Shown: positions 191 to 15,468 of the stretch, piece by piece | How positions within the stretch are numbered: the stretch's first letter is position 1 | Layout of the letters: each line of letters starts with the position of its first letter | NCBI GenBank assembly: GCA_963665115.1 | Contig: OY762007.1 | Location: 4,352,001-4,416,000, forward strand | DNA: 64,000 nt | From: an uncultured Rivularia sp. | GTDB lineage: Bacteria; Cyanobacteriota; Cyanobacteriia; Cyanobacteriales; Nostocaceae | Direction of reading: 5' to 3' | The notes under the pieces: model-generated | Seen by the model: only the letters and a program-made list of their open reading frames with translations | What the model was told of the DNA's origin: nothing | Databases searched by the model: none | Translations under genes and position numbers: made by a program

Positions 191-999
191 TTATTCGATG
201 AGTGAGTAGAGGTAAAGTACTCGCTCCCAAACAATTTGAGCAAGCCGTACATCTAAACAATTTCCAAGGGCTGCTCGACGAGTGCGAGTAATTCCGTTGC
301 CGCTCGGTGTTCCTGTGGGGATGTCCATCTGATTGGCAGCCCGAACTGTAGTTCTAGCCATTCTGGATTGAACACTTGCTTCTTGCCAATTAACCCCAAT
401 TTCTTGGCTTTGGCTTCTGACGCGGGTATTTCCAGGAGGGTCGTCCTTTTCCACTCCAACTCAAAGCTCCTGGACGCGGCAACGAGCAAGAGCCTTTCTC
501 CCGACCATTTAGTTCCAAACCTCGATGTTCCGACAACAATCCATTCCGAATCATACCCACATTCATAAAGCTGCTGGAGCATCTGTTGAAAATATGATCC
601 GGGTTTGTCTCCTGGGTATTGGGGAGCCGACAATAATCCGGGTACATTTTCGAGACAGAAGAATTTGGGTTGGATTCTAGCAACAAGTCGCAAAACTGCG
701 GGAATACAGTCTCGTTCATCGGCTCCTCCCCTTCGATGCCCTTCAATGCTAAACGGTTGACATGGTGGTGATGCGGTAATCGTGTCGATTTCTCCCTTGT
801 GAATTCGGAGGTCGCGCACCGAGTTGTAGATTGGCACACCGGGGAATCGTTTTTGCAAGATTTCTTTACAAAACGAGTCGATTTCACAGAGTCCGCATAG
901 TTGGACTTTTCCTGTGATAATTCCCGAGAGGGGGAAACCGGCTCCAACTCCGCTGCACAAGTCAAGCACTCGGAGTTTTCTTGTTCCCATTTCTCCCAT
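191..999 (-). CDS. C5 DNA cytosine methyltransferase, catalytic (alpha-like) chain; apparent frameshift near 425-440
   Basis: Motifs DLCSGVG (I), CEID (II), ASPPCQPFS (IV) and ENVPG (VI) in ORF 253..999. A motif X-like RRAALGNC lies in ORF 191..454. Removing one base from each of two homopolymer triplets (minus-strand CCC, nt 438-440 and 424-426) joins them. Confidence 0.75.
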
Positions 1000-1157
1000 G
1001 CCTCCTCGTATTCAGCTAAGGTGTCATAATCATCCGGTTCTGGTGGTTCAATACTGTCATCCCAAAAAATCAAAGGATTTCCATCCGAGTCAAGTTTACG
1101 CGGCATTTCTCCAAAATGCGCCGGATTCCAACGGTCAGACTGAGAAATTTCTTTCAC
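253..1157 (-). CDS. Overprinted alternative-frame ORF, putative beta chain of the methyltransferase (motif IX-like tail)
   Basis: A 255-codon frame overlaps the MTase by ~600 nt. It has an acidic N-terminus (PPEPDDYDTLAEYEEAWEKWE) and SLPRPGA. The same two-base correction joins it to FNPEWLELQFGLPIRWT. Confidence 0.6.
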
Positions 1158-1211: not shown

Positions 1212-2849
1212 TTAGTTAGCCGAGCAAGATATATTTTCTCGCCATTTACGAAGCTGGTGATATATTTCAATCTCGTGGAAGGCTCGGTTTTCCCATATTA
1301 ACGTACCTGGAAGCTTGATCTTATATACCCCATTCGCTATCTCCTTATACTCCTCTATTACACCCTCTTTCTTAGCCTTATTTAATACCCTGATACTATC
1401 CGGAGTAATATCAATCACCCTCCGCTTTTGCTCCTTAGAAAGCGTATTCCAAGCTTGTTCCTTAATTTCTGGGTATTGGCTAAATATGTTTCTAATATCT
1501 TCCCAATCTCCGTGTATTAAAACATCGATTCCCTTGTCAAGTGGTGTCGGCTCCAACTCTGAATCCGATTCTTCTGGCTCCTCTAAATATTGTTCTTCTA
1601 CTTCTTCAGCACTTGTATAAAACCTAGACCTAGTTGTTTCTTTAACTACTTCCAACTCAGTCCAATGAAAATAATGATTGAATCCATCAATCTTGACCAA
1701 AATGGGATTAATATTCTCGCCATTTAATCCGATTACCTTACCTTGTTTATTTTGAAGATTCCCTGTCTTTATTTCTACCGTAGCGGGTATGTCGAAGCCC
1801 ATCGATACCAGAGCATCGTTACGAACATCGGTGTCTACCCATGCTAACTCTTGCTCAAAGTTGTGGTAATTTGCAAGAGTCGCACCCCAAGTTTCTCTCC
1901 ATTGTGGATTGTGGTTAAAAGCATAATTAGAAAGATGCTTGAGCGATGTTGTATCATGCCGAACTATATTCGATATGGCATCCCATCTTTTATCTTGAGG
2001 AACTGCTGCTTCCCAACGTTGGCAATTCTCTACTATCAATTGACCACAATTGGGACTGATTCTACCAATTTCAATGACCGAGGTGATTAGTTGCTCTGAT
2101 AATTCTTCCCATTTCTGCTCGACTGTTTGAGTTGTGCCGGTTGGTGGGGTTTGTTGATTATAACTGTCGTCCACTTCTTGAGTGCTATTTTCTTCTATAT
2201 CATCTACATTTTTGTCAGCACTGTCAACAACTTCATCAAGCTCTTCTGCTTCTGTGACTTTTCGATATAAATCAGCGATCGCACTTCTAATGATATCTTG
2301 AGGTATTAGCCCGAAATTATCCATCAATTTCTGAGTTAATAAGCCCGTTTGTTCGTCAAATTCATACATAGGTGGGAATTGTGCGTAGCGCTCCCCTCTA
2401 CAATTTCTGCGCCATATAGAAGGCTTACTTGGTAGTGCTGACTCTCTTTCCTTTTTAAGTTGTGCTTGCCTTTCCTTAATTAGTGAATCTACGTAAGCAC
2501 AAGTTAAATCCTCTTCGACTTCAGATAGCTGCTCAATTATTGGCTGATATTTTTCCGAACACAATCTTAGTAGCTTTGTCACGGGTAATTGAATTAGAGC
2601 ATTGGGACGATATGCGAAATCTTGAAAATTCTCTGCTAGTTTGAGCGCTCGTTTCTCTTCTGTGCTGCCTTTATCCCAGGCGTAATCATCGAGCAGTTCT
2701 CGATATTCCTTCTTACTGTAAGACCTCTTGTACTCCCACAACAAGAAACTAGCATGAAGGTATTCTACGGTGCTTGTTTCAAGATGCTTTACGGGTGAGG
2801 CATCTATGTTGTGAGTCTCTTGATACGTTGATTTTTCAACTAATTGCAT
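1212..2849 (-). CDS. Hypothetical element protein, 545 aa, acidic, possible KOW-like segment
   Basis: Long ORF with ATG start, co-oriented with the MTase. Segment TVEIKTGNLQNKQGKVIG resembles KOW. Confidence 0.7.
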   Translation of the reverse strand: MQLVEKSTYQETHNIDASPVKHLETSTVEYLHASFLLWEYKRSYSKKEYRELLDDYAWDKGSTEEKRALKLAENFQDFAYRPNALIQLPVTKLLRLCSEKYQPIIEQLSEVEEDLTCAYVDSLIKERQAQLKKERESALPSKPSIWRRNCRGERYAQFPPMYEFDEQTGLLTQKLMDNFGLIPQDIIRSAIADLYRKVTEAEELDEVVDSADKNVDDIEENSTQEVDDSYNQQTPPTGTTQTVEQKWEELSEQLITSVIEIGRISPNCGQLIVENCQRWEAAVPQDKRWDAISNIVRHDTTSLKHLSNYAFNHNPQWRETWGATLANYHNFEQELAWVDTDVRNDALVSMGFDIPATVEIKTGNLQNKQGKVIGLNGENINPILVKIDGFNHYFHWTELEVVKETTRSRFYTSAEEVEEQYLEEPEESDSELEPTPLDKGIDVLIHGDWEDIRNIFSQYPEIKEQAWNTLSKEQKRRVIDITPDSIRVLNKAKKEGVIEEYKEIANGVYKIKLPGTLIWENRAFHEIEIYHQLRKWRENISCSAN

Positions 2850-2926
2850 GATATTATGTCAGCTCGTTTTATTTGACTTTGGTCTTCTTTCAAGACCAAT
2901 TTTTATTTATTCGACTAAATAGAATA

Positions 2927-3553
2927 CTAAGCAGCACTTTGCTTTGTGATACTCTGCTGCTCCCTTTTGCGATGTGCTGCGAGTGCATATGCCAAAGTAT
3001 GTTGGTGATATAAAGGCATCTTCGGAAGTTCGATGTCTCTTCCCCATTCGTATATTGTGCGTTTGGATATTTTTAAGGTTTCAGATAGTAAGGTGAGGTA
3101 TTGTCCCCGAAATTTGGTAGAAGTTACTATTTTTAATTTTTCACTATGCGATAACCCCCTTAAAAGTGTCTCTTCGATGAACTGCATTGCGGCTATTCTT
3201 GGCGCTGTGTAATCACGGCAAGCGATTCTCCTCAATTCGTCTGGGGATAGAGCAATCTGTGCGTAACTACAAGTTTTTCTCGCGTGTTGTGGCATACCTT
3301 CAAAATTTGGATTATCACCCCACTCCCTCACTGTCTTTTTTTGCATCCCTAACAATTTGGAAATCAGGTTCATGCATCTTGTACTATATCCGAACCTAAT
3401 TTCCTCATCTATTATTGCTTCGGGCATTAATTTGTCTATGCCGAAGCAATAACGTAGAAATTCTCTAGGCTCTATGCTTTCGGTTGGTAGGTGTTGGAAA
3501 ATTTGGTAGTTTTGCATTTTTTTACTCATTACAGTTTTACGAATAATTTGCAA
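2927..3553 (-). CDS. Putative DNA-binding protein with two tandem HTH-like repeats, divergent from repressor
   Basis: Internal repeat ISKLLGMQKKTVREWG...MPQHARKTCSYA / LSETLKISKRTIYEWG...MPLYHQHTLAYA. Start codon uncertain. Confidence 0.65.
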   Translation of the reverse strand: MQIIRKTVMSKKMQNYQIFQHLPTESIEPREFLRYCFGIDKLMPEAIIDEEIRFGYSTRCMNLISKLLGMQKKTVREWGDNPNFEGMPQHARKTCSYAQIALSPDELRRIACRDYTAPRIAAMQFIEETLLRGLSHSEKLKIVTSTKFRGQYLTLLSETLKISKRTIYEWGRDIELPKMPLYHQHTLAYALAAHRKREQQSITKQSAA

Positions 3554-3677
3554 CTAATTAGATATTAATACTGTATTGCATAAAACACCATACAATTTTG
3601 TAAATATATGTTCCAGGCATTAGTTTGTAAACTCTTGAAATGCCTGTGGTATCTTTAAAGTAAACGTAGATTAATTT

Positions 3678-4338
3678 ATGTCAAGTGGTGATAACGAACG
3701 CAGACAACGGCTTTCCGTTTTATGTAAGCGACTTCGTGGTAATGAGTCGCTGCGTTCGTTTACCAAAAAGCGGAGTCATGAGCTTAAAGGTATTAGTCAT
3801 GCTTCTTGGAGTTCTTGGGAAAGCAAGAGAGCAGGACTTAGTACGGACTCTTTGGATCGGTTGGCAAGTTTTATTGGTTGTTCGCATCAATCTCTTTTCG
3901 CGTACTTAGACGGCTCCATAACTTTAAGAGAATTGCTTCAACCAACTTCAACGAGTGATATTAAGGTAAACAAGGACTCGCTTTCGGCTCTTTCTCCAGA
4001 TGCCGCTGCTGTATGGATGAAGTCGCTTTCCCTAAAAGACAAATTGCTTGTTGCTTCTCAAGGCTTTCAATTATTCCAAGATCAACTTGACGAGCTTGTT
4101 GAACAAAAAGCCAAAGAATTAGTTGAGCAAGAAGCTCAAGAAACTCATCACTAAAAGAGCTAAAGAGCTAGTTGAAAAAGAACGATTAGAACCAATTGAG
4201 CAAAAAGTCAAATTACTGATAAATTTACTATCTGCCGATGATTATCCCCCATTATCTGAGATTACAAGAGTAGCAGATAAATTAAATTTAAAAATTGAGG
4301 ACTTGATTGAATTATGCAATCGTATTTACGAGGGATAG
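3678..4338 (+). CDS. XRE-like HTH repressor, copy 1 (extra A at ~4141 splits it into ORFs 3678..4154 and 4123..4338)
   Basis: HTH-like SLRSFTKKR...ISHASWSSWE. Deleting one A in GAAACTC restores EAQELI and the C-terminus matching copy 2. Confidence 0.75.
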
Positions 4339-4674
4339 CAAGCAATTTGGGCATGGTAATTGATATTTCTCTACGGAGATTATATCCAGCAGGAAATCTC
4401 CGGGTGGAATACGGTTCCTCAGTTGTTAGAGTGCTAATTTCTAAGCAATAACCTAGAAATCACTGCATTTTCTAGCTTGATGCGATGGGTGACGTAAAAT
4501 TTCGTATTTTTGCATTTTTATCAAGAGTCGATTTTTACGGTTAATTTGCTATTGATTAGATATTAATACTTTTTGGTTTGAAAGGCAACACAAATAGTGA
4601 TGTCTTTTCACATATTTTTAGTTAGAAACTCTTGAAAGGCTTGTGGTATCTTGGAAAAAAAAGTAAATTCGTTT

Positions 4675-5280
4675 ATGCCAAGCGGTGATGATGAACGCAA
4701 GCTACGCCTCTCTATTTTGTGTAAGCGACTTCGTGGTGAAGAGTCGCTACGTGCGTTCACCAAAAAGCGAAGCCAAGAACTTGGAGGTATTAGCTACGCC
4801 GCTTGGGGCGTTTGGGAAAGGGCACAAGGAGATTTGAGTAGTGCTTCTTTAGCTAGGTTGGTAAATTTTCTTGGTTGTTCCTACCAATCTTTTTATGCAT
4901 ACTTAGATGGCTTCATCACTTTGGAGGAGTTAATTCAACCAACTTCAACTTCGGATGTTGAATCAAGCAAGCAATTAGATTTTTCTCCCGATGCAGCTAC
5001 TGTATGGATAAAGTCGCTAGCTCCCGAGGAGCAACTATTTATACTATCTCAAGGTTTTCAAGCGTTTCAGGAACAACTAAATAAGCTTGTTGAACAAAAA
5101 GCCAAGCAATTATTTGAGCAAGAAGCTCAAGAATTGATAAGTTTGCTATCTGGTGATGATTATCCTCGTTTTTCTGAGATTGCAAGAGTCGCAGATAAAT
5201 TCAATTTAAAAACTGAAGACTTAATGGAATTATGTAGTCGTATTTACTCAAGGAGCAAAGAATACGGACATGGTAATTAA
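4675..5280 (+). CDS. XRE-like HTH repressor, copy 2
   Basis: Colinear paralogue of 3678..4338 (LCKRLRG.ESLR.FTKKRS.EL.GIS). The ATG at 4675 aligns with the ATG of copy 1. Confidence 0.8.
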   Translation: MPSGDDERKLRLSILCKRLRGEESLRAFTKKRSQELGGISYAAWGVWERAQGDLSSASLARLVNFLGCSYQSFYAYLDGFITLEELIQPTSTSDVESSKQLDFSPDAATVWIKSLAPEEQLFILSQGFQAFQEQLNKLVEQKAKQLFEQEAQELISLLSGDDYPRFSEIARVADKFNLKTEDLMELCSRIYSRSKEYGHGN

Positions 5281-5603
5281 TATTCCTCTGCGGGGATTAT
5301 ATCCGGCACGAAATCTCCGTTTGAACACTATTACTTTAGGTACGAGCCTCTAAGCATACTAATAAGTTAAATGCTTTCATAGTGCTAATGACTATATTAA
5401 ACAAAATAATTGTGTAATTTAATCGGTAATATTCTTATTAACCAAAAACCATAAACTTTAAGTTTATTCACTATCTTACTTGTAACACTTTTAATTTTGT
5501 GTCTAAATTGATCATGTAAATTGAAGCGCAAGTGCAATTCAATTATATTTGAGTTTTAATTGCACCTCATTGATAGTTGAAAAGCAATCTAACTAAAGAA
5601 GGC

Positions 5604-5996
5604 ATGAAAAATATTCAGCTACTTTATACCCAAAGTACATTAGCTAAACGGTGTAAAGTTAGCCTTCAAACAATTAAAAACTGGTGTTTGTGGGCTGGAC
5701 TTACACCACCGAAAAAAGCAACCTATTTCAGTTGTGATGAATTAGAAGCCTTAGCTGACTTTTATATCGCCTACAAATTTCTGCGCGTACAGCAAGATGC
5801 TTACATAGATACTGTTTTAGGTATGGGTGGCTTAAAAAAGTATATTACCTCAGTACGCCGTATGAGCTTACATCAATTCGTTACGGAGTTTTTAACGATA
5901 GAAGAAAAAGCTAACTTTTTAGTGCAAATTTTAGTTGATAAATTAGAAGAGGAAATTGAAGATGATGAATTTAACTTTGGTGGCACAGCAGCTTGA
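5604..5996 (+). CDS. Small HTH protein (MerR/excisionase-like N-terminus), first gene of element operon
   Basis: YTQSTLAKRCKVSLQTIKNW pattern; ATG at 5604 preceded by GAAGG. Confidence 0.6.
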   Translation: MKNIQLLYTQSTLAKRCKVSLQTIKNWCLWAGLTPPKKATYFSCDELEALADFYIAYKFLRVQQDAYIDTVLGMGGLKKYITSVRRMSLHQFVTEFLTIEEKANFLVQILVDKLEEEIEDDEFNFGGTAA

Positions 5997-6591
5997 AATT
6001 CCCTTAGAGCAACTCAAATCAATTTGTCAGGTATTGAAAATTGAAATTGTTAAAAACGCAATTACGCCAAATGAGAAAGAAAAGATTCAAGAGTTTATCA
6101 GAGCGTGTAAAAACCAAGAAATAACCATAGAACAAGGACTATTAGAGCTACAAGAATTATCTCTTGAAGCCAAAACTCAACAAAAAGCTTTAGGCGAAAG
6201 ATTCAACTTAGGCGAATTTTTCAAGCAACGTATCGGCACCTCCCCAGAAGAATTAAATCCTGGCAGCTACCATTATGATTTATATCAATTACTGTTGAAA
6301 TCCCAATCAATATCTCAAGTTGGTTACGCATTATTTCGAGAAGCTTTTTTACGTCAAACACAGGATTTAATTATGAATGGCACCGAGGAATCATCTATCA
6401 ATCAAAATCAAACAGTTGCTGGTTTTGATAAAGCTTTTGTGAGTATTGAAAATCAATTTGAGCAAAATTTTTTAGGAAATTCAATCAACTGGGAGGAAAA
6501 GCAACATCCGATGTTGAAAGCATCTCAAAAAACAGCGCTACCTTCAACGCAGAAAATCAATACACTAACATCCCCGTCGTCGAAGAAGTAA
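5956..6591 (+). CDS. Hypothetical protein
   Basis: 211-aa ORF overlapping the previous gene, preceded by GAGGA. Confidence 0.65.
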   Translation: MKMMNLTLVAQQLEIPLEQLKSICQVLKIEIVKNAITPNEKEKIQEFIRACKNQEITIEQGLLELQELSLEAKTQQKALGERFNLGEFFKQRIGTSPEELNPGSYHYDLYQLLLKSQSISQVGYALFREAFLRQTQDLIMNGTEESSINQNQTVAGFDKAFVSIENQFEQNFLGNSINWEEKQHPMLKASQKTALPSTQKINTLTSPSSKK

Positions 6592-6608
6592 TTGAGGTAG
6601 TCCCAGAG

Positions 6609-6935
6609 TTGGCAACCGCAACTGTAAAAGCAATCGCACCAACAGTTAATAAAGCTGTAGCTACCGACCGTCGAACCATAGCTGATTTCATGAGGGAAGG
6701 GGGATTTGTTGCAACTACTGCCGCAATCACAACAACAACTACCGTTGCAACAATAGCTGTTTGTGTTACCTCTCCACCAAAACCAGTTTTCTTCAAAATT
6801 ATGCTTGGTGGGATTAGCGGGACTATTTTGGGAGGACTTATTGCAGCACTTATCTTAAGGCACTATAGAAAGGAGGTTTTAAGGAACGATGCTTTCTTCA
6901 CATCAACAGCAGAATCATCAAAACAATCAACTTAG
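6609..6935 (+). CDS. Small membrane protein (two hydrophobic segments); start uncertain
   Basis: Hydrophobic stretches VATIAVCV and IMLGGISGTILGGLIAALIL. The frame is open further upstream. Confidence 0.55.
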   Translation: MATATVKAIAPTVNKAVATDRRTIADFMREGGFVATTAAITTTTTVATIAVCVTSPPKPVFFKIMLGGISGTILGGLIAALILRHYRKEVLRNDAFFTSTAESSKQST

Positions 6936-7854
6936 TAAAGATAATTTTGATGAAGTATGGGTGCCAAATCCTCATGGACAATTACAAGATAGTGCTGCGA
7001 CGCATGGGTTAATCAATGGTATTAAATCCGGAAACTTAGATTCGTTGTTAACTAACCCTTGGCTAATGTCGATTTTCGTTGCAACAGTAATTTTGGTTGT
7101 GATTGCTGCAATTGCAACAATACTCTCCGGTCAACGTTCTACAGAAATTAACCCATCCCAAGAAGCATACTCCGAACTTTTGCAAAAATCCCAGAAACTG
7201 AATGCAACCGATAGCAACTTCCGAGAATATTTGACTCGTAATGATTACAGTTCTGGCTTAGTCAGTAACCCTGGTTTATTACAAGCAGTAGTTTTGGAAG
7301 CGAGTGCAAGATATAGCAACTCCGTTATTGCCAACCAAAACAATCCCCAAAATCCAGCTTATAACCAACACGAGGAAGTAATTAATCACGGTTCTGAAAT
7401 TGAAGCATTGAAACGCATCAATCTCGGAGCATCTGGGAAAAAAGCGGAACTTAGATATGTTGACCCTAGTACAGGCTCTTGGGTCACTATTCCAATAGAT
7501 TCTGCCGAGTTAGCTGCAAGTGGTTTGGTCAAATTAAATATTATCTCTAATAGCAGAAGGGAGACAACACAGCGATTTAATTTGGTGACAATTGCTCAAA
7601 ATACGCGACTTCGCTTATCAGAGGTAAAAGCCGCTATGTTGGAAGCCTTGCGTGTCAAAGGGTTAAGTCCGGTTGCATCGGAACTTGAGAAGACTGATTG
7701 GTTCGGGAATAAAGCCAGCCCATCCGATGCCCAGATATCTGATTATCAGCCCTACCAAGCAGAACCGACTCCCGCAACTCCATTAAATAAACAAGAATCA
7801 TCTGATGAAAATAAACCCTCACCAAAACCAATAGGGGGCAAAAATGCCCAGTAA
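6889..7854 (+). CDS. Single-pass membrane protein
   Basis: TM segment WLMSIFVATVILVVIAAIATIL; RBS AAGGAGG upstream. Confidence 0.7.
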   Translation: MLSSHQQQNHQNNQLSKDNFDEVWVPNPHGQLQDSAATHGLINGIKSGNLDSLLTNPWLMSIFVATVILVVIAAIATILSGQRSTEINPSQEAYSELLQKSQKLNATDSNFREYLTRNDYSSGLVSNPGLLQAVVLEASARYSNSVIANQNNPQNPAYNQHEEVINHGSEIEALKRINLGASGKKAELRYVDPSTGSWVTIPIDSAELAASGLVKLNIISNSRRETTQRFNLVTIAQNTRLRLSEVKAAMLEALRVKGLSPVASELEKTDWFGNKASPSDAQISDYQPYQAEPTPATPLNKQESSDENKPSPKPIGGKNAQ

Positions 7855-9229
7855 ACTAATATTCGCACCCATAACTCTGCTAATAGGAGGTTGGATGTTT
7901 ACCAGTAGTTTTGGCACTAACACAATTCAACAATCAGCAACACCATATTCCACCCAGCAGCAAGTTGTAGAAGTGGAAATGCCTGAACCAGCAAAATCTT
8001 TTCTTCGATTTGGTGGTAGTGCGATCGCAGTATTGGGGACATCAAGTTTAGTGTTTTGGGAATTAGCGAGTAAAAAACATCGCTCCTCAAAACCTCAACT
8101 TTTATTAGCTGCGGGTCAAAACTTTGTCCCAAACACAGTTCAATTGGTCAATCATCCTCAAGGAATTTCATCGGTGCAAAATCATCAAGAGCCACCAGCA
8201 AGTACTAAAATTCCTAAGCAGATTCAAAAACCAAGTGTCTCTCCTGAAGTTGAAGAGTTTCCACCACAAGAAGTTGCAAATTTCTACTTTCCAGGTGGAT
8301 TACCCGACTCGCTATCAAATGATTACGATACACTAAGCAACTTGAAACCACAAAGCAGTTCTGAGGATAAATATGCCGAAGTTAAATCATTAGTTTACGA
8401 AAACACGGTAGGTATCGTTGGCAAGGAAAAAGGCAGCGGTAAAACCTCAAAATTAGGTTATTTAATTGCCGAACATATTAAGCTTGGTCATTTGGTTTGG
8501 ATGATAAACCCCTTCGCCAAAGGTCAGCAGTGGAAAGGTATTAAGGTTTTTGGACGCGGTTATAAATTTGTTGAAGCAACTAATGCCATACGCGAATTTA
8601 CTCGTATTGCATTTTGGAGAATCGCAGAAGCTGGCGATGAAACCAAAGAGTACGAGCCATTTGAAGATTATCACCTGCATCTATCACTCGATGAAATGTC
8701 CAACTACTCCAGCGAAATCGATGCGATTGATTCTACTGTGATGCCTAAATTTTGGGAAGCGGTAGTGCAATTTTTACGACAAGCAAATATGTCTGTTTCT
8801 TTTGCAAGTCATGGTGATACTCAAGCTATGTTAGGTGGAGCTAAGGCTCTAACTGGTAAATCGCAAACTATCAAAGATGCCATAGTTTGGCTTTATGCTC
8901 AAGCTATTACCGATACTAACGTAGAAGGTAATAAACGTTGTGCGGGTTGGGCTTATTTAATTCGTCCAGATGGAGGTGAAAGAGAGAAGACGAGAATTGA
9001 AATTCCTTCTTGGATGCAAGGACCACCTGCAACTCGAATTGATGGAAAGGATAAGTATAACTACATTCAACTTGTTCAAAAATACTGCCCCCAGTATCTG
9101 TATCTTCCAGAGAAGGCCAAAAAACCACCACCAGAAGAAACTTCATCTATACCCATAGATACCGAACAGTTTCGTCAAAAACTAATGGAGCAAGAAGATA
9201 TATGGGGTTCCGATGGAGATAAAACATGA
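7844..9229 (+). CDS. Membrane-anchored P-loop ATPase (FtsK/HerA/coupling-protein-like)
   Basis: Two N-terminal hydrophobic segments, Pro/Gln-rich linker, Walker A-like GKEKGSGKTS, Walker B LHLSLDE, and RQANMSVSFASH. Confidence 0.7.
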   Translation: MPSKLIFAPITLLIGGWMFTSSFGTNTIQQSATPYSTQQQVVEVEMPEPAKSFLRFGGSAIAVLGTSSLVFWELASKKHRSSKPQLLLAAGQNFVPNTVQLVNHPQGISSVQNHQEPPASTKIPKQIQKPSVSPEVEEFPPQEVANFYFPGGLPDSLSNDYDTLSNLKPQSSSEDKYAEVKSLVYENTVGIVGKEKGSGKTSKLGYLIAEHIKLGHLVWMINPFAKGQQWKGIKVFGRGYKFVEATNAIREFTRIAFWRIAEAGDETKEYEPFEDYHLHLSLDEMSNYSSEIDAIDSTVMPKFWEAVVQFLRQANMSVSFASHGDTQAMLGGAKALTGKSQTIKDAIVWLYAQAITDTNVEGNKRCAGWAYLIRPDGGEREKTRIEIPSWMQGPPATRIDGKDKYNYIQLVQKYCPQYLYLPEKAKKPPPEETSSIPIDTEQFRQKLMEQEDIWGSDGDKT

Positions 9230-9291
9230 ACCGTTAACGAGAAAGAGAATAATACAATTCCAATACTTTAATTCATTAATTAGGAGTAACA

Positions 9292-9951
9292 ATGACTAGA
9301 AAACAAGTGTACCGAAGAGATTTACCACAATTGGCTTCAAGCCATCAATTAGATACCAACGTGGTAGATACACGTTATGAAGAATTTGATGACGACCAAT
9401 ATTCTCGTAACAATCAGTGGCATAATCGTGCCTATAATGCCGGACGCTACGCTAAGGGTGCTTACAATTGGGGTCAAAAATGCAGCCGTGGCGTAACCCC
9501 AGCAATGGAAAATGGAGCGGGCGCTGCGATTGGAACTCTAGGCACTGTTGCTAATCATACAAATCCTTTCAAACCCTGGCGTTCATTTGCCTTTTGGAGC
9601 ATGAGTATCGGTACTTTAGTTGTTGGCTCCTGGGTGGCACAATTCTTTTTAGGTGGACTAATTGCAACTCGCAATCCTCGCCAATTACCTCAGAATACTT
9701 CCACTCCAGTCCGTTTTGGTCACGGCGTTATTAATGCTGGTAAGCCTGTCGCTAACGGTGTTTGGAATGGATTTGGTCAAGTTGCAACGGGAGCAGGAGA
9801 TAGTTTGGATAGAGCTGTACGTTTCCAAACTGTTGAATCGAATAATTGGCAACAATCACCTGCCAGTGTGCAGCAGCCAAAACAGACAACTACCTTACCT
9901 TTGACTACTTGGACGGGTGATGGTCAATATCAACCTGTAAGGAGAAAGTAG
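9292..9951 (+). CDS. Membrane protein, Gly-rich
   Basis: RBS AGGAG; TM segment FAFWSMSIGTLVVGSWVAQFFLGGLIA. Confidence 0.7.
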   Translation: MTRKQVYRRDLPQLASSHQLDTNVVDTRYEEFDDDQYSRNNQWHNRAYNAGRYAKGAYNWGQKCSRGVTPAMENGAGAAIGTLGTVANHTNPFKPWRSFAFWSMSIGTLVVGSWVAQFFLGGLIATRNPRQLPQNTSTPVRFGHGVINAGKPVANGVWNGFGQVATGAGDSLDRAVRFQTVESNNWQQSPASVQQPKQTTTLPLTTWTGDGQYQPVRRK

Positions 9952-10001
9952 AAGGGAGTGAGAGAGGGAGAGAAAAATAAAGTACTAAAGGTAAATTAGA
10001 A

Positions 10002-10370
10002 ATGTTCAAAAAATCCGATAAATTCCCTCACTCCCTCCCTCCTTCGCTCCCTCACTCCTGCTGGGTGAGGATTCCTACGTCGAGTTTTTTAATTACAAGT
10101 TCCGTGTTTATTGTATTAATTCTGGATATGGCAAGTCCTGGCTATGCTTCGTTTGCTTTAATCCCAAATATGCAACCATTAATTGCAACGCTGACTAACA
10201 ATATTCGTTCGGCAAATGAAAAGTTGACGCATTCACAATCCTTACCCAGTTCTACTCAAGAAATTCAACAACCTTTAGGACATGAAAATTGTCGAACATT
10301 ATTAGATGCTTACAACAAGAATGCTAAATGTCATTTCAACCTGAAGAATTACTCAAACATCTCCCAATAG
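10002..10370 (+). CDS. Hypothetical exported/membrane protein
   Basis: Hydrophobic segment FLITSSVFIVLILDMA; overlaps the next gene. Confidence 0.5.
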   Translation: MFKKSDKFPHSLPPSLPHSCWVRIPTSSFLITSSVFIVLILDMASPGYASFALIPNMQPLIATLTNNIRSANEKLTHSQSLPSSTQEIQQPLGHENCRTLLDAYNKNAKCHFNLKNYSNISQ

Positions 10371-11192
10371 AAATTCAGTATCAAGAAATAAAGGCATCTG
10401 AGGAAGCATATCGTAAATTTAGATTATCTCAAGCAAGAGGCCGTATTTGTTGTTTTGGATTATCTTTGGTTATGGCGATCGCCATTCTACATCCTTCAAT
10501 AAATCAATGGTTTGAGACTAAACTTCAATTAAACCGTATTGCTGTAATTAGTTTTTCAAAAAGCCTCAATAAACCAAAACAAGCTGATAAAATTGCTGTT
10601 GCACTTGTAAACTACGCACGCAGACAAAAGTGGGAAGTACGAACAGGGGAGCGTCATTACAACATTTTTTATGTTCAAGGTATGTTTCCATCAGGCATCA
10701 AAAATGATAACAAACCGAACCAGTTCAATGATTCCCGGTTTTTAGTAGAAGTAAATCCCACTCCCAGACTGATTAGTGCTTGGGAAGCGTCTATTGAACC
10801 GGGTAATTATTATACTAAGCAGCCTATGAATGCTTTGGGCGCTGCACAGATAAAAGTTCCCGGACAGTATAAAGCTTGGCGGATTGGAAAACACAAAGGG
10901 TCGTGAGATTGCATTAGTTCAAGTTGCACCAGTAAACATAATCCGGGACTTCAACCGTAATAGCAAAATTGATAAATATGATAAGAAGGAATATTCAATA
11001 ATTGGAGCGAATCAACATAGTGGAAACGACCAAAAGTTTGTTGATAATGCAAGCGCTGGATGTCCGGTAGGACGAACATCTAAAGGACATCAAGAATTTA
11101 TGAGTTATTTATACAAAGACGTGGGTTATCAAGCAAATAATAATTTCATATTTTCAACTACATTTATTTCAGCAAAAGAATTGAAATTTTAA
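10328..11192 (+). CDS. Membrane-anchored putative cell-wall enzyme with L,D-transpeptidase-like H...SAGC motif (extra G at ~10899 splits it)
   Basis: Removing one G from AAAGGGTCGTGAG gives HKGREIALVQ and joins ORFs 10328..10906 and 10884..11192. Motif NQHSGNDQKFVDNASAGCPVG; N-terminal TM segment. Confidence 0.6.
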
Positions 11193-11197
11193 CTTTT

Positions 11198-11626
11198 ATG
11201 CCCAGCAGGAAATTGAGAATGAAAACAAAAAAATATCTGTCTCCAAGCGATTATTATTCGTACATTAAATCTGATGCTTGGAGAAGTAAGCACTATCACT
11301 GGCTAAAACAATCTAGCAATAGATGTTCGATGTTTCCTTGGATAAGAATAGGCAAATATGCTACTAGAAAATATGGTAAATACAACATACATCATACAGG
11401 GGTTGGCTATCGACATTTGGGACATGAGGAATTAGGTAAAGATGTACTTCCGCTTTGCCCGTTTGCTCATTGGTTAATTCATGGTGGACATATGAAAGCT
11501 AAAGCTCCTTGGCAACCTAATGCTATTCAAAAAACTTTGCATTTATGGTGCAGTTTACCACTAATTATGAAACAACTATTTTTGTTGTTTAGTGGTTTAT
11601 TAATAATATTTTATTTAAGAGCATGA
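11198..11626 (+). CDS. HNH-endonuclease-like protein with hydrophobic C-terminus
   Basis: YIKSDAW, RCSM, IHH...YRHLGHE...DVLPLCPFAHWLIH pattern. Confidence 0.55.
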   Translation: MPSRKLRMKTKKYLSPSDYYSYIKSDAWRSKHYHWLKQSSNRCSMFPWIRIGKYATRKYGKYNIHHTGVGYRHLGHEELGKDVLPLCPFAHWLIHGGHMKAKAPWQPNAIQKTLHLWCSLPLIMKQLFLLFSGLLIIFYLRA

Positions 11627-11664
11627 ATAGAATTATTTAGTGGTGTTTTATTTCTATGTAGATA

Positions 11665-12462
11665 ATGAGAGATTCAATAAAGTTAGGATACAAATGGGAT
11701 TTACTCAATATACTATTACTATTTTTGATTACAAGTTTTGCATTAAGTAAACCCGCAATTAAATTTATTTCAAATGGGGTAAAAAGTATCTCTCCAACTC
11801 CTACTTCATATTCTGGAAGGTTAAACGATTTATTTGCTAACAACTCTTCTATAGGTGTATTAGCAATCTGTGCATCTGAAGGAAATTGTCAGCTTGATGG
11901 TAGCAGAACAAAGCTTTATTCAGGTCATGTTGACCCTGGTAATGGGGTTCTAAATAGAGGCTGGTGTAGCGACCAAGGTAGGGGAGGTAATAATTTAGAT
12001 AATGCTGATGCAGTATGTTTAAAGAGAACTATAAGCCGTATTCCTAGATTAGCTAACAAACTCAAAAATGTTGGCATAAATCCCGAAAAAAATATTGAAG
12101 CATTTATTAATAATTTAGACCAATGGAATCAAGCATCTCCTCGTGTCTCAGATGCTTTTGCAAAAAAATATGCTGATGCTTTGAAGAAAGGATTAACGGG
12201 TAAAGAAGCTATTTTATGGGCGAGGGTTGAGGCTTTTCGTAAAAGTAATGGAGAACTTGAAGCAGGTAATTCACGAGTAGGTCTATTTTCAATTTGTGCT
12301 AATCCTCAAAATACTTACTACATTACAAGGTTACGACAATATTCAATGTGGTCGGAACGATGGAGATGGAATTGTATTGCTTTAGATCAACAGCGAAGAC
12401 AAGAAGCTATTAATCAAGTTTTAATGAGAAACGAGAATAATTTCAACAATCAAAATAACTAA
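11665..12462 (+). CDS. Membrane-anchored putative lysozyme-like/cell-wall hydrolase
   Basis: N-terminal TM segment; ICASEGN...LYSGHVDPGNG..NRGWCSDQ resembles lysozyme-fold catalytic regions (inference). Confidence 0.55.
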   Translation: MRDSIKLGYKWDLLNILLLFLITSFALSKPAIKFISNGVKSISPTPTSYSGRLNDLFANNSSIGVLAICASEGNCQLDGSRTKLYSGHVDPGNGVLNRGWCSDQGRGGNNLDNADAVCLKRTISRIPRLANKLKNVGINPEKNIEAFINNLDQWNQASPRVSDAFAKKYADALKKGLTGKEAILWARVEAFRKSNGELEAGNSRVGLFSICANPQNTYYITRLRQYSMWSERWRWNCIALDQQRRQEAINQVLMRNENNFNNQNN

Positions 12463-12700
12463 TAATATTAATATAATTATGAAGCAATTATATTCCTGCT
12501 ATCAAGTCGAAGAAGTTTGAAAACATCACTGGTAATGCGTTAGCGAAGCTCACGCCCCGGCATCGCCCTCATTGAAGAACACTACATTCTATCGAAATGG
12601 TTACTCATAGCATCGGATTACGGTGTACCTCAAAAACGCTAAAGGGCGATTTGGTTTGGTTCTAAATTGGCTCCAGTTAATGCACTATCTCCAAGCGATA

Positions 12701-13832
12701 AGTGCCTAAGCAAAATTAATTGTATATTCTGAACCAAAATTTATAAGAATATTTTCGACAGCTTCAACTAAAGTAGAATAACTATCATAGGCATTCACTT
12801 CCAGCCATTTGTATTTAATAAATCGCCATAATATTTCTATAATATTCAAATGAGGGGAATAAGTAGGTAAAAAGAAAATATACAACCCTTTTTTTGACCA
12901 TTCTTCTTCTTTATCCCACAAAAAATTGTTTTGATGTATCGATGAATTATCCATGACTAAAACTGTTTTTTTTGTAATCTTTTTACAAAAATCATCGATA
13001 CAAGCTATAACAACATCACTATTGATACTACAATCAAAAGCATATGCTTCTAATTCGTTATTTCTAGTTAAAAATCCTAAAACGTTTAATCTTTTACTTT
13101 GTTGACTTTTTTCTGTTGTTTTTTGTTTACTTTCTTGCCAAGCATAAGGGATGTATGGAATTAAACAAAAGCCACTTTCATCTACATATCTAATTTCTAT
13201 TTCTCCAATAGATTCTTGTTCTTTTAATTTTTGTAATTCCTGGTATTTTTTATCGTAAAATGCAGGAATGGGAACACCTCCAACTATTCTCTTAATTCTA
13301 TACCAACCCATAGAGGCGATTTTTAACACTCTCTTAATTGTATCTTTGCTTGCTAAAATCCCCCATTCTTTTTCTATTCTATCTTGAACCTTTTCTAAAT
13401 TTTTTGGCGTTTCTTTTACCCATTCTTTAATCACTTTTTGTTGATTAATATTAAAGATTGTTTTACGACCACGACCTGGATTATTATATAATCCTGCCAA
13501 ACTCTCCAAATCCCAATTATTAAACCAGTTATAAATTGTGTTACGACTAACTTTAAATAATTTCATTAATTCTGATATTTTATATCCTTGAAAACTTAAT
13601 TTTATACAATGCGCCCTTTGTCTTACTTGGTAATATTTACTTTGATGATAGATTCTATCTAAAATTTTTAATGTTTCCTTACTTAATCCTTTTATATATC
13701 TCATCTGTTAAAAAATCTATATTACTCTCTCATACTATTTTTTCACAAAGTAGGAGATAACAAGATTTTTTATACCTCGAAGTAATAATTTTAATATTTT
13801 TTTAAATATACAATTAATTTTGCACTAGTACT
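12701..13832 (-). mobile_element. Complete IS630-family insertion sequence with TA target duplication
   Basis: TIRs AGTGCCTAAGCAAAATTAATTGTATATT and AGTACTAGTGCAAAATTAATTGTATATT (reverse complement of the right end), flanked by TA at 12699-12700 and 13833-13834. Confidence 0.92.
12706..13704 (-). CDS. IS630-family transposase
   Basis: N-terminal HTH; DDE motifs YVDESGF, VMDN and PTYSPHLNIIE; uninterrupted single ORF. Confidence 0.95.
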   Translation of the reverse strand: MRYIKGLSKETLKILDRIYHQSKYYQVRQRAHCIKLSFQGYKISELMKLFKVSRNTIYNWFNNWDLESLAGLYNNPGRGRKTIFNINQQKVIKEWVKETPKNLEKVQDRIEKEWGILASKDTIKRVLKIASMGWYRIKRIVGGVPIPAFYDKKYQELQKLKEQESIGEIEIRYVDESGFCLIPYIPYAWQESKQKTTEKSQQSKRLNVLGFLTRNNELEAYAFDCSINSDVVIACIDDFCKKITKKTVLVMDNSSIHQNNFLWDKEEEWSKKGLYIFFLPTYSPHLNIIEILWRFIKYKWLEVNAYDSYSTLVEAVENILINFGSEYTINFA

Positions 13833-14043
13833 TAGAAGGTCCAGTGTGGGAGATGCAATTTCTGACCTTAAAGATATCCCTATTAATTTTTACATTGAAT
13901 ACTTGGGAATGCAGTGAAAAAGGAAAATATGCTTGCTATCTAGAGAATATATTTGCTTTGAAATCAAGAATAAGAACAAACGTTTGTAGTGATTGTAGGG
14001 CAGCCATCAGTCCCGTTCCTAAAATCAAATCAATCCCCGCTTT

Positions 14044-14400
14044 TTGGCAGATGATTCAAATACCAAAGTAAGTAATCAGAACCAGGTGCTAGGGGAAAAT
14101 ATATCACTGCCGATTTCCCTTAGCACCCAATTAGAAGGTGAGAGCCAAAACCATGAAGACACTTCATTATTATCAACTGATTCAAATACCCAAGTAAGTA
14201 ATGACGATCAAGTGCTAGGGGAAAACATATTACATTTAAATTCCCCGCTTCTCCCATCGTAAACGTGGTGAGGGCAGTGGTAATATTTTCTTGAGTTACG
14301 CCCATGCTAATAGCAATAACAAGAAACCAGTCAAACAGCTTTACTTCGAGTGGGAATATGGGGGTAAAAGAGGAAAGACTTATGTGCGTTTAGCTGAGTC
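14044..14400 (+). pseudogene. Fragmented element gene with ~50-bp internal direct repeat and basic C-terminal domain
   Basis: gattcaaatacc.aagtaagtaat...gtgctaggggaaaa at ~14053 and ~14179. A shifted frame reads HRKRGEGSGNIF...QLYFEWEYGGKRGKTYVR. Confidence 0.45.
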
Positions 14401-14628
14401 CCAAGGGGACACGCTGCGCGAACGCTAATTGCCTGCATGTCTAACGCACTTAACCTAGTATTTTCGAGACACCAAAGTTATCTGTATTAGACATCTCCGA
14501 AAACAGCCAAAGTCTTACTATAACTACTTTTTAAATTACGATTACCTATATGTTGCATCTTGTATTAGATAAGTTTGAAAGTTGTTAGTATTTGCAATTT
14601 CCTTAAAATACCACATCGTACATAAAAC

Positions 14629-15468
14629 TTGAGTCTTAAACACGGTTCCTGGTTTGAGGTCGTAAAAAGGAAATTCTGGTTCGGTGCATCCCAAACAAGG
14701 TACTCCGGCGCGTGTTTTTGATGAGACGCGATTCCATAAGATGCGATTGCAGGAAGAATGAGTCATTGGCCCGCGACATCCGATGTCGTAAAATAAGCAT
14801 CCTTTACGTTGAGCAAATTCTGTGGTGGATGCTTTATAAGCAAAGTGGATATTGCGAGTACAACCAGTTTGCGTAAACGTGTTGAAGAAAGTTTGGGGAC
14901 GATGCAAGTCATCGAGGACAATATCGCCGATTCTGCCAGTTGCGATCGCCACCAATATTTGAGTTATCCAGTCCGGGTGGGCTGGGCAGCCGGGAATATT
15001 AATTACGGGTAAACCAGATTTCGACCGAAAGTCTTTACCTAAAAATCCGCCTTCTTCTCGCTTGAGATATTGCAATCCGGTTGAATCGGTGGGGTTTGGT
15101 GCCATCGCGGGAATTCCTCCCCAGCAAGCACAGTCTCCCACCGCTACGACAAAATTGGCAACGTGAGCCAAATCGCTTAACCAATCTTTCATCGGGCGAT
15201 CGGCAAATCTATTCCATTCGCCGGTACCGTTGGGAGCATTAATTACAGAGCCTTCAAATACGAGAATATCGAGGGGCTTTTTACCCAAAAGACATTCCCA
15301 TAGCATCGTCTGTAAATCAATACCCAACTCCATTCCTAGAGATGGATGCCATAGGACGTTAACGCCAAAGTCAGTTACTAAATCAACTGCTGTGGGTTCT
15401 TCGGCGTTTAGGAATGACATGGTGTTGCCACTACAGGCACCACCTTGTAACCATAGTAAATTAGCCAT
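14629..15468 (-). CDS. hupS: Uptake [NiFe]-hydrogenase small subunit, 5' portion (280 codons), interrupted; frame runs on to a stop at 14542
   Basis: MANLLWLQGGACSGNTMSFLNAEEP, GDCA, PGCPAHPDW, FTQTGCTRN, CLFYDIGCRGP, CLGCTEPEFP; no Tat leader, as in cyanobacterial HupS. Confidence 0.95.

Follow-up and report, generated by a model that had tools for sequence, protein, structure and literature searches.

Two overlapping reading frames in a Rivularia element as probable chains of one dual-coded DNA cytosine-5 methyltransferase

Two long reading frames on the same strand overlap in the window, the 64,000-nucleotide stretch of uncultured Rivularia sp. DNA analysed here, and between them they carry the motifs of a DNA methyltransferase, which raises the question of whether this locus specifies one polypeptide or two and of whether this particular copy is still functional. 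We conclude, with a probability of about 0.8, that the gene is dual-coded, that the two frames specify two chains (alpha and beta) of one DNA cytosine-5 methyltransferase, and that a real frameshift inactivates the window copy.

The initial annotation reported two long overlapping frames on one strand, and this is borne out by an overlap of 610 nt between frames A and B on the minus strand. As they stand in the window, the frames of interest are:

999-253, minus strand: frame A, 248 aa, running into FNPEWLELQFGLPIRWT at 372-322
1157-390, minus strand: frame B, 255 aa
454-191, minus strand: frame C, with RRAALGNC at 280-257

Residues 10-193 of frame A match PF00145 (E 2.8e-31). Motifs I-VI had been assigned to a single frame, and they do lie together in frame A, although the series extends to motif VIII rather than ending at VI; the IX-like and X-like motifs are, as had been described, in different frames, FNPEWLELQFGLPIRWT in frame A and RRAALGNC in frame C. 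When apportioned to the two proposed chains, the locus comprises the following parts:

439..999, minus strand: alpha catalytic chain with motifs I-VIII, matching PF00145; the model of the intact relative L021 resembles M.HhaI
963-943, 771-748, 660-643 and 498-478, minus strand: alpha motifs DLCSGVG, SPPCQPFS, FCLENV and ERLLLVA, respectively
999 or 990, minus strand: ATG start of alpha
191..424, minus strand: remainder of alpha, an unconstrained linker followed by motif X (RRAALGNC, 280-257) and the last helix
984..1157, minus strand: acidic N-terminal module of beta (DRWNPAHFGE...EYEEAWEKWE), with a GTG start at 1157
600..983, minus strand: beta linker above alpha motifs I-VI, stop-free, amino acids not conserved
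425..599, minus strand: first half of the beta core, with the GMIRNG strand (557-540), LPRPG (482-468) and GRPPG
253..423, minus strand: second half of the beta core, with the helix EAKAKK and motif IX (372-322)
255-253, minus strand: TAG stop of beta, within alpha
438..440, minus strand: extra base in a CC run, absent from short-read contigs
421..426, minus strand: +1 frameshift with two substitutions, breaking both frames at once

Approximately 750 nt of DNA is common to the two chains, the beta start lying 53 codons ahead of the alpha start in the window. The catalytic PC (motif IV) and ENV (motif VI) of a C5 methyltransferase (PF00145) are present in alpha, and the beta EEAW codons spell GAGGAGGC-ATG, a Shine-Dalgarno-like sequence together with the alpha start. 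The acidic module of beta gave no Pfam match and no usable Atlas match. At window positions 540-560 the same bases give alpha GYDSEW and beta GMIRNG, neighbouring strands that are predicted to pair. At this locus promoter and terminator scans remained at chance level and no tRNA was found.

The open +1 frame exceeds chance, as a stop-free +1 run of at least 200 codons occurs in 2 of 3455 long ORFs of the same genome, while five other C5-methylase-like ORFs of that genome have +1 stops close to expectation (30, 19, 12, 20 and 10 seen against 27.8, 24.5, 8.8, 18.9 and 11.2 expected, respectively). With expectations obtained by synonymous resampling, 32 cyanobacterial-type loci contain a total of 8 +1 stops against 288 expected, namely 7 against 102 over motifs I-IV, 0 against 62 over IV-VI and 1 against 124 over VI-IX, and 52 phage-type loci contain 154 against 184, 8 against 63 and 3 against 263 over the same three spans. 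These counts indicate that the phage-type beta begins near motif IV, whereas that of the cyanobacterial type stays open along the full length of alpha; ten loci of less than 62% identity have no +1 stop over motifs I-IV against 44 expected. Pairwise comparison of 14 related, and not independent, loci of the Rivularia/Calothrix branch gave an alpha pN/pS of 0.20-0.46 outside codons 165-228 (0.26 over motifs IV-VI) and of 1.61 inside them, while that of beta is 0.17 in alpha codons 165-228 and 0.72-1.23 elsewhere, with 0.96-1.23 in the linker at 600..983. Column entropies across 37 loci follow the same alternating constraint, in agreement with the pN/pS values. Wherever one frame is a free linker the other is constrained, and conservation examined in both frames thus places both under selection, in complementary stretches, as the two-chain proposal of the initial annotation would have it.

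A search of species genomes yielded 19 loci (Rivularia, Calothrix, Plectonema, Richelia and unnamed bins). Eleven are intact, with an alpha composed of motifs I-VIII, a linker of some 60 residues and X, and with a beta that continues in the +1 frame through LPRPG, GRPPG and motif IX; frameshifts, stops or truncation disrupt the remaining eight, from which it follows that selection on the close relatives is weak. Beyond these genomes, the alpha alignment was taken to the best 80 viral and best 80 metagenome loci, and a profile of the IX-like segment was run on all three frames. Matches in the +1 frame served to seed this profile, and a DLCSG pattern was the criterion for choosing loci, so that the counts hold for this subfamily only. 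Of the closed loci, 75 of 76 viral and 67 of 71 metagenome ones have the IX-like motif in the +1 frame; four viral and nine metagenome loci were open-ended and three closed loci scored below the cut. Setting aside 7 + 6 open-ended or weak cases, both instances of a frame-0 IX lack X. Stops in the second frame of homologues, or IX and X united in one polypeptide, had been named as observations that would tell against two chains; the +1 frame stays open, and no closed viral or metagenome alpha ORF was found to combine a beta-type IX with X.

The beta profile matches 22 of 301 cyanobacterial genomes, that of the window included, and reciprocally 22 of 23 new loci found through beta overlap a same-strand alpha, one frame off. 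The wider beta profile finds 36,581 clusters of proteins (50% identity), 15,448 of them at E 1e-10. The PHROG family phrog_1008 matches 51 of 86 beta cores, so that phage catalogues already include the beta family; the window-like beta of L021 is not matched. In Anabaena WA102 only the beta frame is annotated.

Concerning the structure of the chains, the AlphaFold model of the intact L021 alpha has a mean pLDDT of 81.7, with residues 190-224 below 50, and its best match is M.HhaI (TMq 0.59). The disordered alpha segment corresponds to the DNA where beta is conserved. The predicted complex of L021 alpha with the beta core scored 0.84 (median of three runs) against 0.36 for the best of three controls, with at least 85% contact agreement between runs and a partner pLDDT of no less than 71. 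Of 157 solved pairs 116 reached the mark, as did 2 of 215 mismatched ones; these figures apply only roughly to our own alignments, and the halves of a split enzyme can pass through likeness to solved single-chain methylases. In this prediction beta residues 82-113 (motif IX) contact the motif X helix and residues 39-46 of alpha, and beta 18-29 pairs with alpha 143-148, nearly the same bases encoding both. Beta had 0 matches among PDB sequences and its profile none by hhalign against one single-chain methylase of this genome, and the IX assignment therefore rests on a short motif (its likeness to M.HhaI), its position and the predicted contacts. Neither Pfam nor NCBIfam holds a family for the beta core. 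Motif VIII reads GxR in 20 of 37 cyanobacterial-type alphas, the window's clade included, and RxR in the other 17, as it does in all 50 of 50 phage-type alphas; the GxR form may lower activity.

Whether the window copy can still specify the two chains turns on two extra bases. When aligned as DNA with 18 genome loci (all 19 but L019), the window has exactly two, a +1 at 438-440 and a +1 at 424-426, and additional loci from 61 related genomes are in agreement with this. Among the 17 loci that span the junction, the 426 base is present in none and the 440 base in one (L006). Contigs from all seven of seven DNA-type runs (X1, X2, X3, X5, X6, X7 and X9; four studies) lack the 438-440 base, while those of X1, X2, X3, X6 and X9 keep the 424-426 base with no differing letter and a single gap, at 438; the contigs of X1, X2, X3 and X9 bridge both sites and that of X6 bridges 426. 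Study P2 possibly supplied the genome itself and would then not be independent, and X5 and X6, from one sample, also carry a divergent allele without the 424-426 base. The 438-440 base is likely an assembly error, though it could be a real strain variant or private mutation, as L006 also has it; the 424-426 base is a real frameshift. The earlier proposal that two single-C deletions restore alpha (999->191) and beta (1157->253) therefore describes the relatives, which (L006 apart) are without both bases, but not this copy, where inspection of 420-445 in the short-read contigs removed the first base and retained the second.

As a result of the 424-426 base, alpha ends without X and the beta start is joined to X without IX. 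In the window, 191..424 is consequently severed from motifs I-VIII, to which it is joined in 11 of the 19 genome loci, and the second half of the beta core (253..423) is out of frame with the beta start. The fusion of beta to X expected from this allele is represented by P0013 (321 aa; four members on three contigs, the independence of which is known from these counts only). Given the presence of the frameshift in short-read contigs from four studies and the occurrence of P0013, the window allele is probably a pseudogene, inactivated by the frameshift. Assembly error as the source of both extra bases is ruled out by the short-read contigs that contain the 424-426 base. Similarly, frame A, which unites I-VIII and IX, is ruled out as a natural single chain as it needs both extra bases and is represented by one member on one contig (P0036); chimeras of this kind in L001, L124 and L186 are without X. 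The GLPIRW sequence was rejected as a mark of decay since the intact L021 carries it. One RNA run (X19) has nothing on 300-620, which is no proof of absence.

Several further observations touch on the lesions and on related genes in this genome. The frameshift site (424-418, minus strand) makes CCGCGTC, which repeats a heptamer found 55 nt upstream (479-473), possibly through a templated mutation. A +2 at 545 recurs in L001 and L008, a +1 at 461 in L007, L008, P0017, P0018 and P0020, and the +1 at 426 is common to the window and P0020; the recurrence of indels in differing combinations suggests recombination among dead alleles. The same genome holds two further remnants of a two-frame methylase (C1:6119747-6120355 and C1:5953328-5953479) and two odd C5-methylase-like ORFs (C1:6198419, minus strand, and 5962747, plus strand) in which STVC replaces PPC at motif IV.

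The locus resides in an element of approximately 139 kb (C1:4,227,190-4,366,630), the right end of which is at the hupS break near 14621-14640. In the window this is seen as:

1212..14621: part of the host element, with regulators, an ATPase-like gene and an IS630-type transposase
14542-15468, minus strand: hupS, cut after KTQ

The last 40 codons of hupS lie about 139 kb away, adjoining hupL, and a serine-recombinase-like ORF of 378 aa (C1:4227262-4228398) is situated beside this distal end. The element also carries conjugation-like genes and metal-resistance-like cargo. The hupL gene is split as well, PF00374 occurring in two places with an integrase between them. Directly downstream of the methylase, outside the window, are a BPTD_3080-family restriction endonuclease and an adenine-type methylase (C1:4348333-4351500 and 4345491-4348274, minus strand), while in L002, L003, L004 and L005 this slot holds other cargo. 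Since the methylase of this pair is of the adenine type and the pair varies among relatives, it is probably not the C5 partner, and the presence of other genes downstream in relatives makes the C5 enzyme likely to be an orphan. The initial annotation had seen no restriction partner; this stands insofar as the conserved cognate endonuclease that defines a Type II restriction-modification system is absent beside the methylase, but a restriction-modification pair does lie immediately beyond the window.

A strong branch (100/99) separates the 37 cyanobacterial-type alphas from nine phage-type rows. Alpha lies wholly within the beta ORF (424-1351 codons between stops) in 25 of these 37 loci; in five, beta starts inside alpha and runs far beyond its end; and in the seven of the window's type beta begins upstream of alpha and terminates some 20 codons short of the alpha end. 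As these seven constitute one clade nested among the enclosing loci, their beta stop is likely derived. Pfam places a Dam domain (PF05869) in 4 of 6 and 13 of 22 scanned beta ORFs, and some contain ASCH, KilA-N or a D12-class methylase; the ancestral cyanobacterial beta was likely a module of a large Dam/ASCH/KilA-N protein. A 1351-codon beta ORF (L145:1577-5629) has D12-class and Dam-type adenine methylase domains and encloses alpha. The genome of the window also has leader-(ASCH)-Dam genes without a C5 module (C1:1742959, 4264493, 5919565 and 6051819), so that the dual-coded segment acts like an optional unit within an element gene of modular build. Among the latter genes one has about nine tandem repeats of about 35 residues, one is frameshifted and one is truncated.

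These data have to be weighed against other explanations. The layout may be real and the Rivularia/Calothrix branch nonetheless a decaying or catalytically weak relic, its intact-looking frames reflecting recent descent only. The GxR form of motif VIII in 20 of 37 alphas, the eight broken loci among 19, the recurrence of the same lesions among copies and the two further remnants in this genome are in keeping with such decay, whereas the pN/pS values across the 14 branch loci (0.26 for alpha IV-VI, 0.17 for the beta core) and the retention of PPC and ENV are not, and we regard a relic branch as unlikely. The window allele itself could be a functional rearranged form in which alpha I-VIII and a beta-X fusion are complemented by a motif IX peptide started independently at GTG 454, or both chains could be restored if ribosomes shift frame at 424-426. 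Its occurrence in samples of four studies and the AGGAG located 12 nt upstream of GTG 454 would fit; however, this AGGAG is a by-product of the beta PGA codons and is present in intact copies, the split is kept in no relative, the other lesions sit elsewhere, no conservation of a slippery site is seen and the base is absent from 17 of 17 aligned relatives, all of which makes a working rearrangement very improbable.

We give equally little credence to the +1 frame being an independent Dam/ASCH polyprotein gene that reads through alpha by chance and whose core does not bind alpha. Leader-(ASCH)-Dam genes do exist here without a C5 module, and beta is without a sequence match to solved methylases. 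Yet motif IX is missing from alpha, whose unstructured stretch coincides exactly with the conserved part of beta; phage loci whose beta has no extra domains retain the core; 22 of the 23 beta-found loci overlap an alpha; and the predicted complex scored 0.84 against 0.36.

On the preferred reading, that of a dual-coded gene for two chains of one enzyme, ribosomes in intact relatives would begin beta at the upstream start and alpha at an internal one, with GAGGAGGC within the beta codons as its putative ribosome site. Judging from the predicted contacts, beta would provide alpha with a strand that packs on the motif VII region, and motif IX of beta would pack on motif X of alpha. The conserved LPRPG...GRPPG segment of beta is likely the DNA recognition loop and would read the DNA sequence. 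In the window's lineage a stop follows directly on motif IX. As an orphan methylase of integrated elements and plasmids, the enzyme may protect the element from restriction or mark it. A bolder proposal, which we advance tentatively and rate somewhat below even odds, is that in cyanobacterial mobile elements alpha docks on a module of the Dam polyprotein, that one complex writes both 5mC and 6mA with the overprinted frame setting specificity, and that tens of thousands of clusters are concerned, one frame of which is missed by gene callers.

As the window copy is probably dead, the value of this locus lies in its intact relatives. If the two-chain reading is correct, a large class of methylases of phages, plasmids and integrated elements is annotated as single-chain, the determinant of specificity lies in a reading frame that annotation omits or labels hypothetical, and a single cloned ORF would yield no activity. 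The approximately 750 nt of dual coding with alternating constraint offers a clear-cut case in nature for studying how genes that overlap divide a common sequence, and the fusions found naturally in beta point to a possible scaffold for directing methylation.

It remains to compare this locus with known systems. Elements with a recombinase that interrupt hupS are known in heterocyst-forming cyanobacteria, according to PMC4874684 and PMC11249958, in the main texts of which "methyl" has 0 occurrences; the present element, of about 139 kb, likewise bears a recombinase and splits hupS. The family phrog_1008, which bears the label DNA methyltransferase, is the same beta family, and its label is silent on the two-frame layout. 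A search of a partial literature collection returned no survey of this layout; such papers as were returned name M.EcoHK31I or M.AquI as exceptions, in the texts consulted the two-frame layout is described for a single enzyme, and the portion consulted of PMC3711429 has nothing on it. With M.HhaI and the single-chain enzymes of PF00145 the locus shares the catalytic fold and the PC, ENV and X motifs; unlike them, alpha is without the small domain and motif IX, and in the window's clade motif VIII is GxR. M.AquI (CYCGRG), from a cyanobacterial host, is a two-chain C5 methyltransferase whose small chain carries IX and X, as described in part of PMC3404938, whereas X is here in the alpha frame.

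The closest counterpart is M.EcoHK31I of E. coli HK31 (YGGCCR), of which the excerpts consulted of PMC2836561 and PMC3404938 state that alpha comprises I-VIII, X and the target-recognition domain, that beta carries motif IX and is encoded wholly within the alpha gene in another frame, and that the beta N-terminus is dispensable and C-terminal fusions are tolerated. Judged from these published descriptions, the intact relatives resemble it in an alpha that holds I-VIII and X without IX, and in a motif IX on a second chain in the +1 frame of the same strand. The claim that the architecture is the same thus applies to the distribution of motifs and not to the nesting, as beta here starts upstream, usually encloses alpha and is often joined to Dam, ASCH or KilA-N; there is, furthermore, no cognate restriction gene, and the window copy is frameshifted. 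Whereas recognition is assigned to alpha in M.EcoHK31I, the conserved residues of the variable region are here in beta, and the pattern of selection points to beta, rather than alpha, as the recognition part. The two-frame layout itself was therefore already known from M.EcoHK31I, and what differs in the cyanobacterial-type loci is a beta that mostly encloses alpha and is often fused to a Dam-type or ASCH domain and, probably, the placement of recognition on beta.
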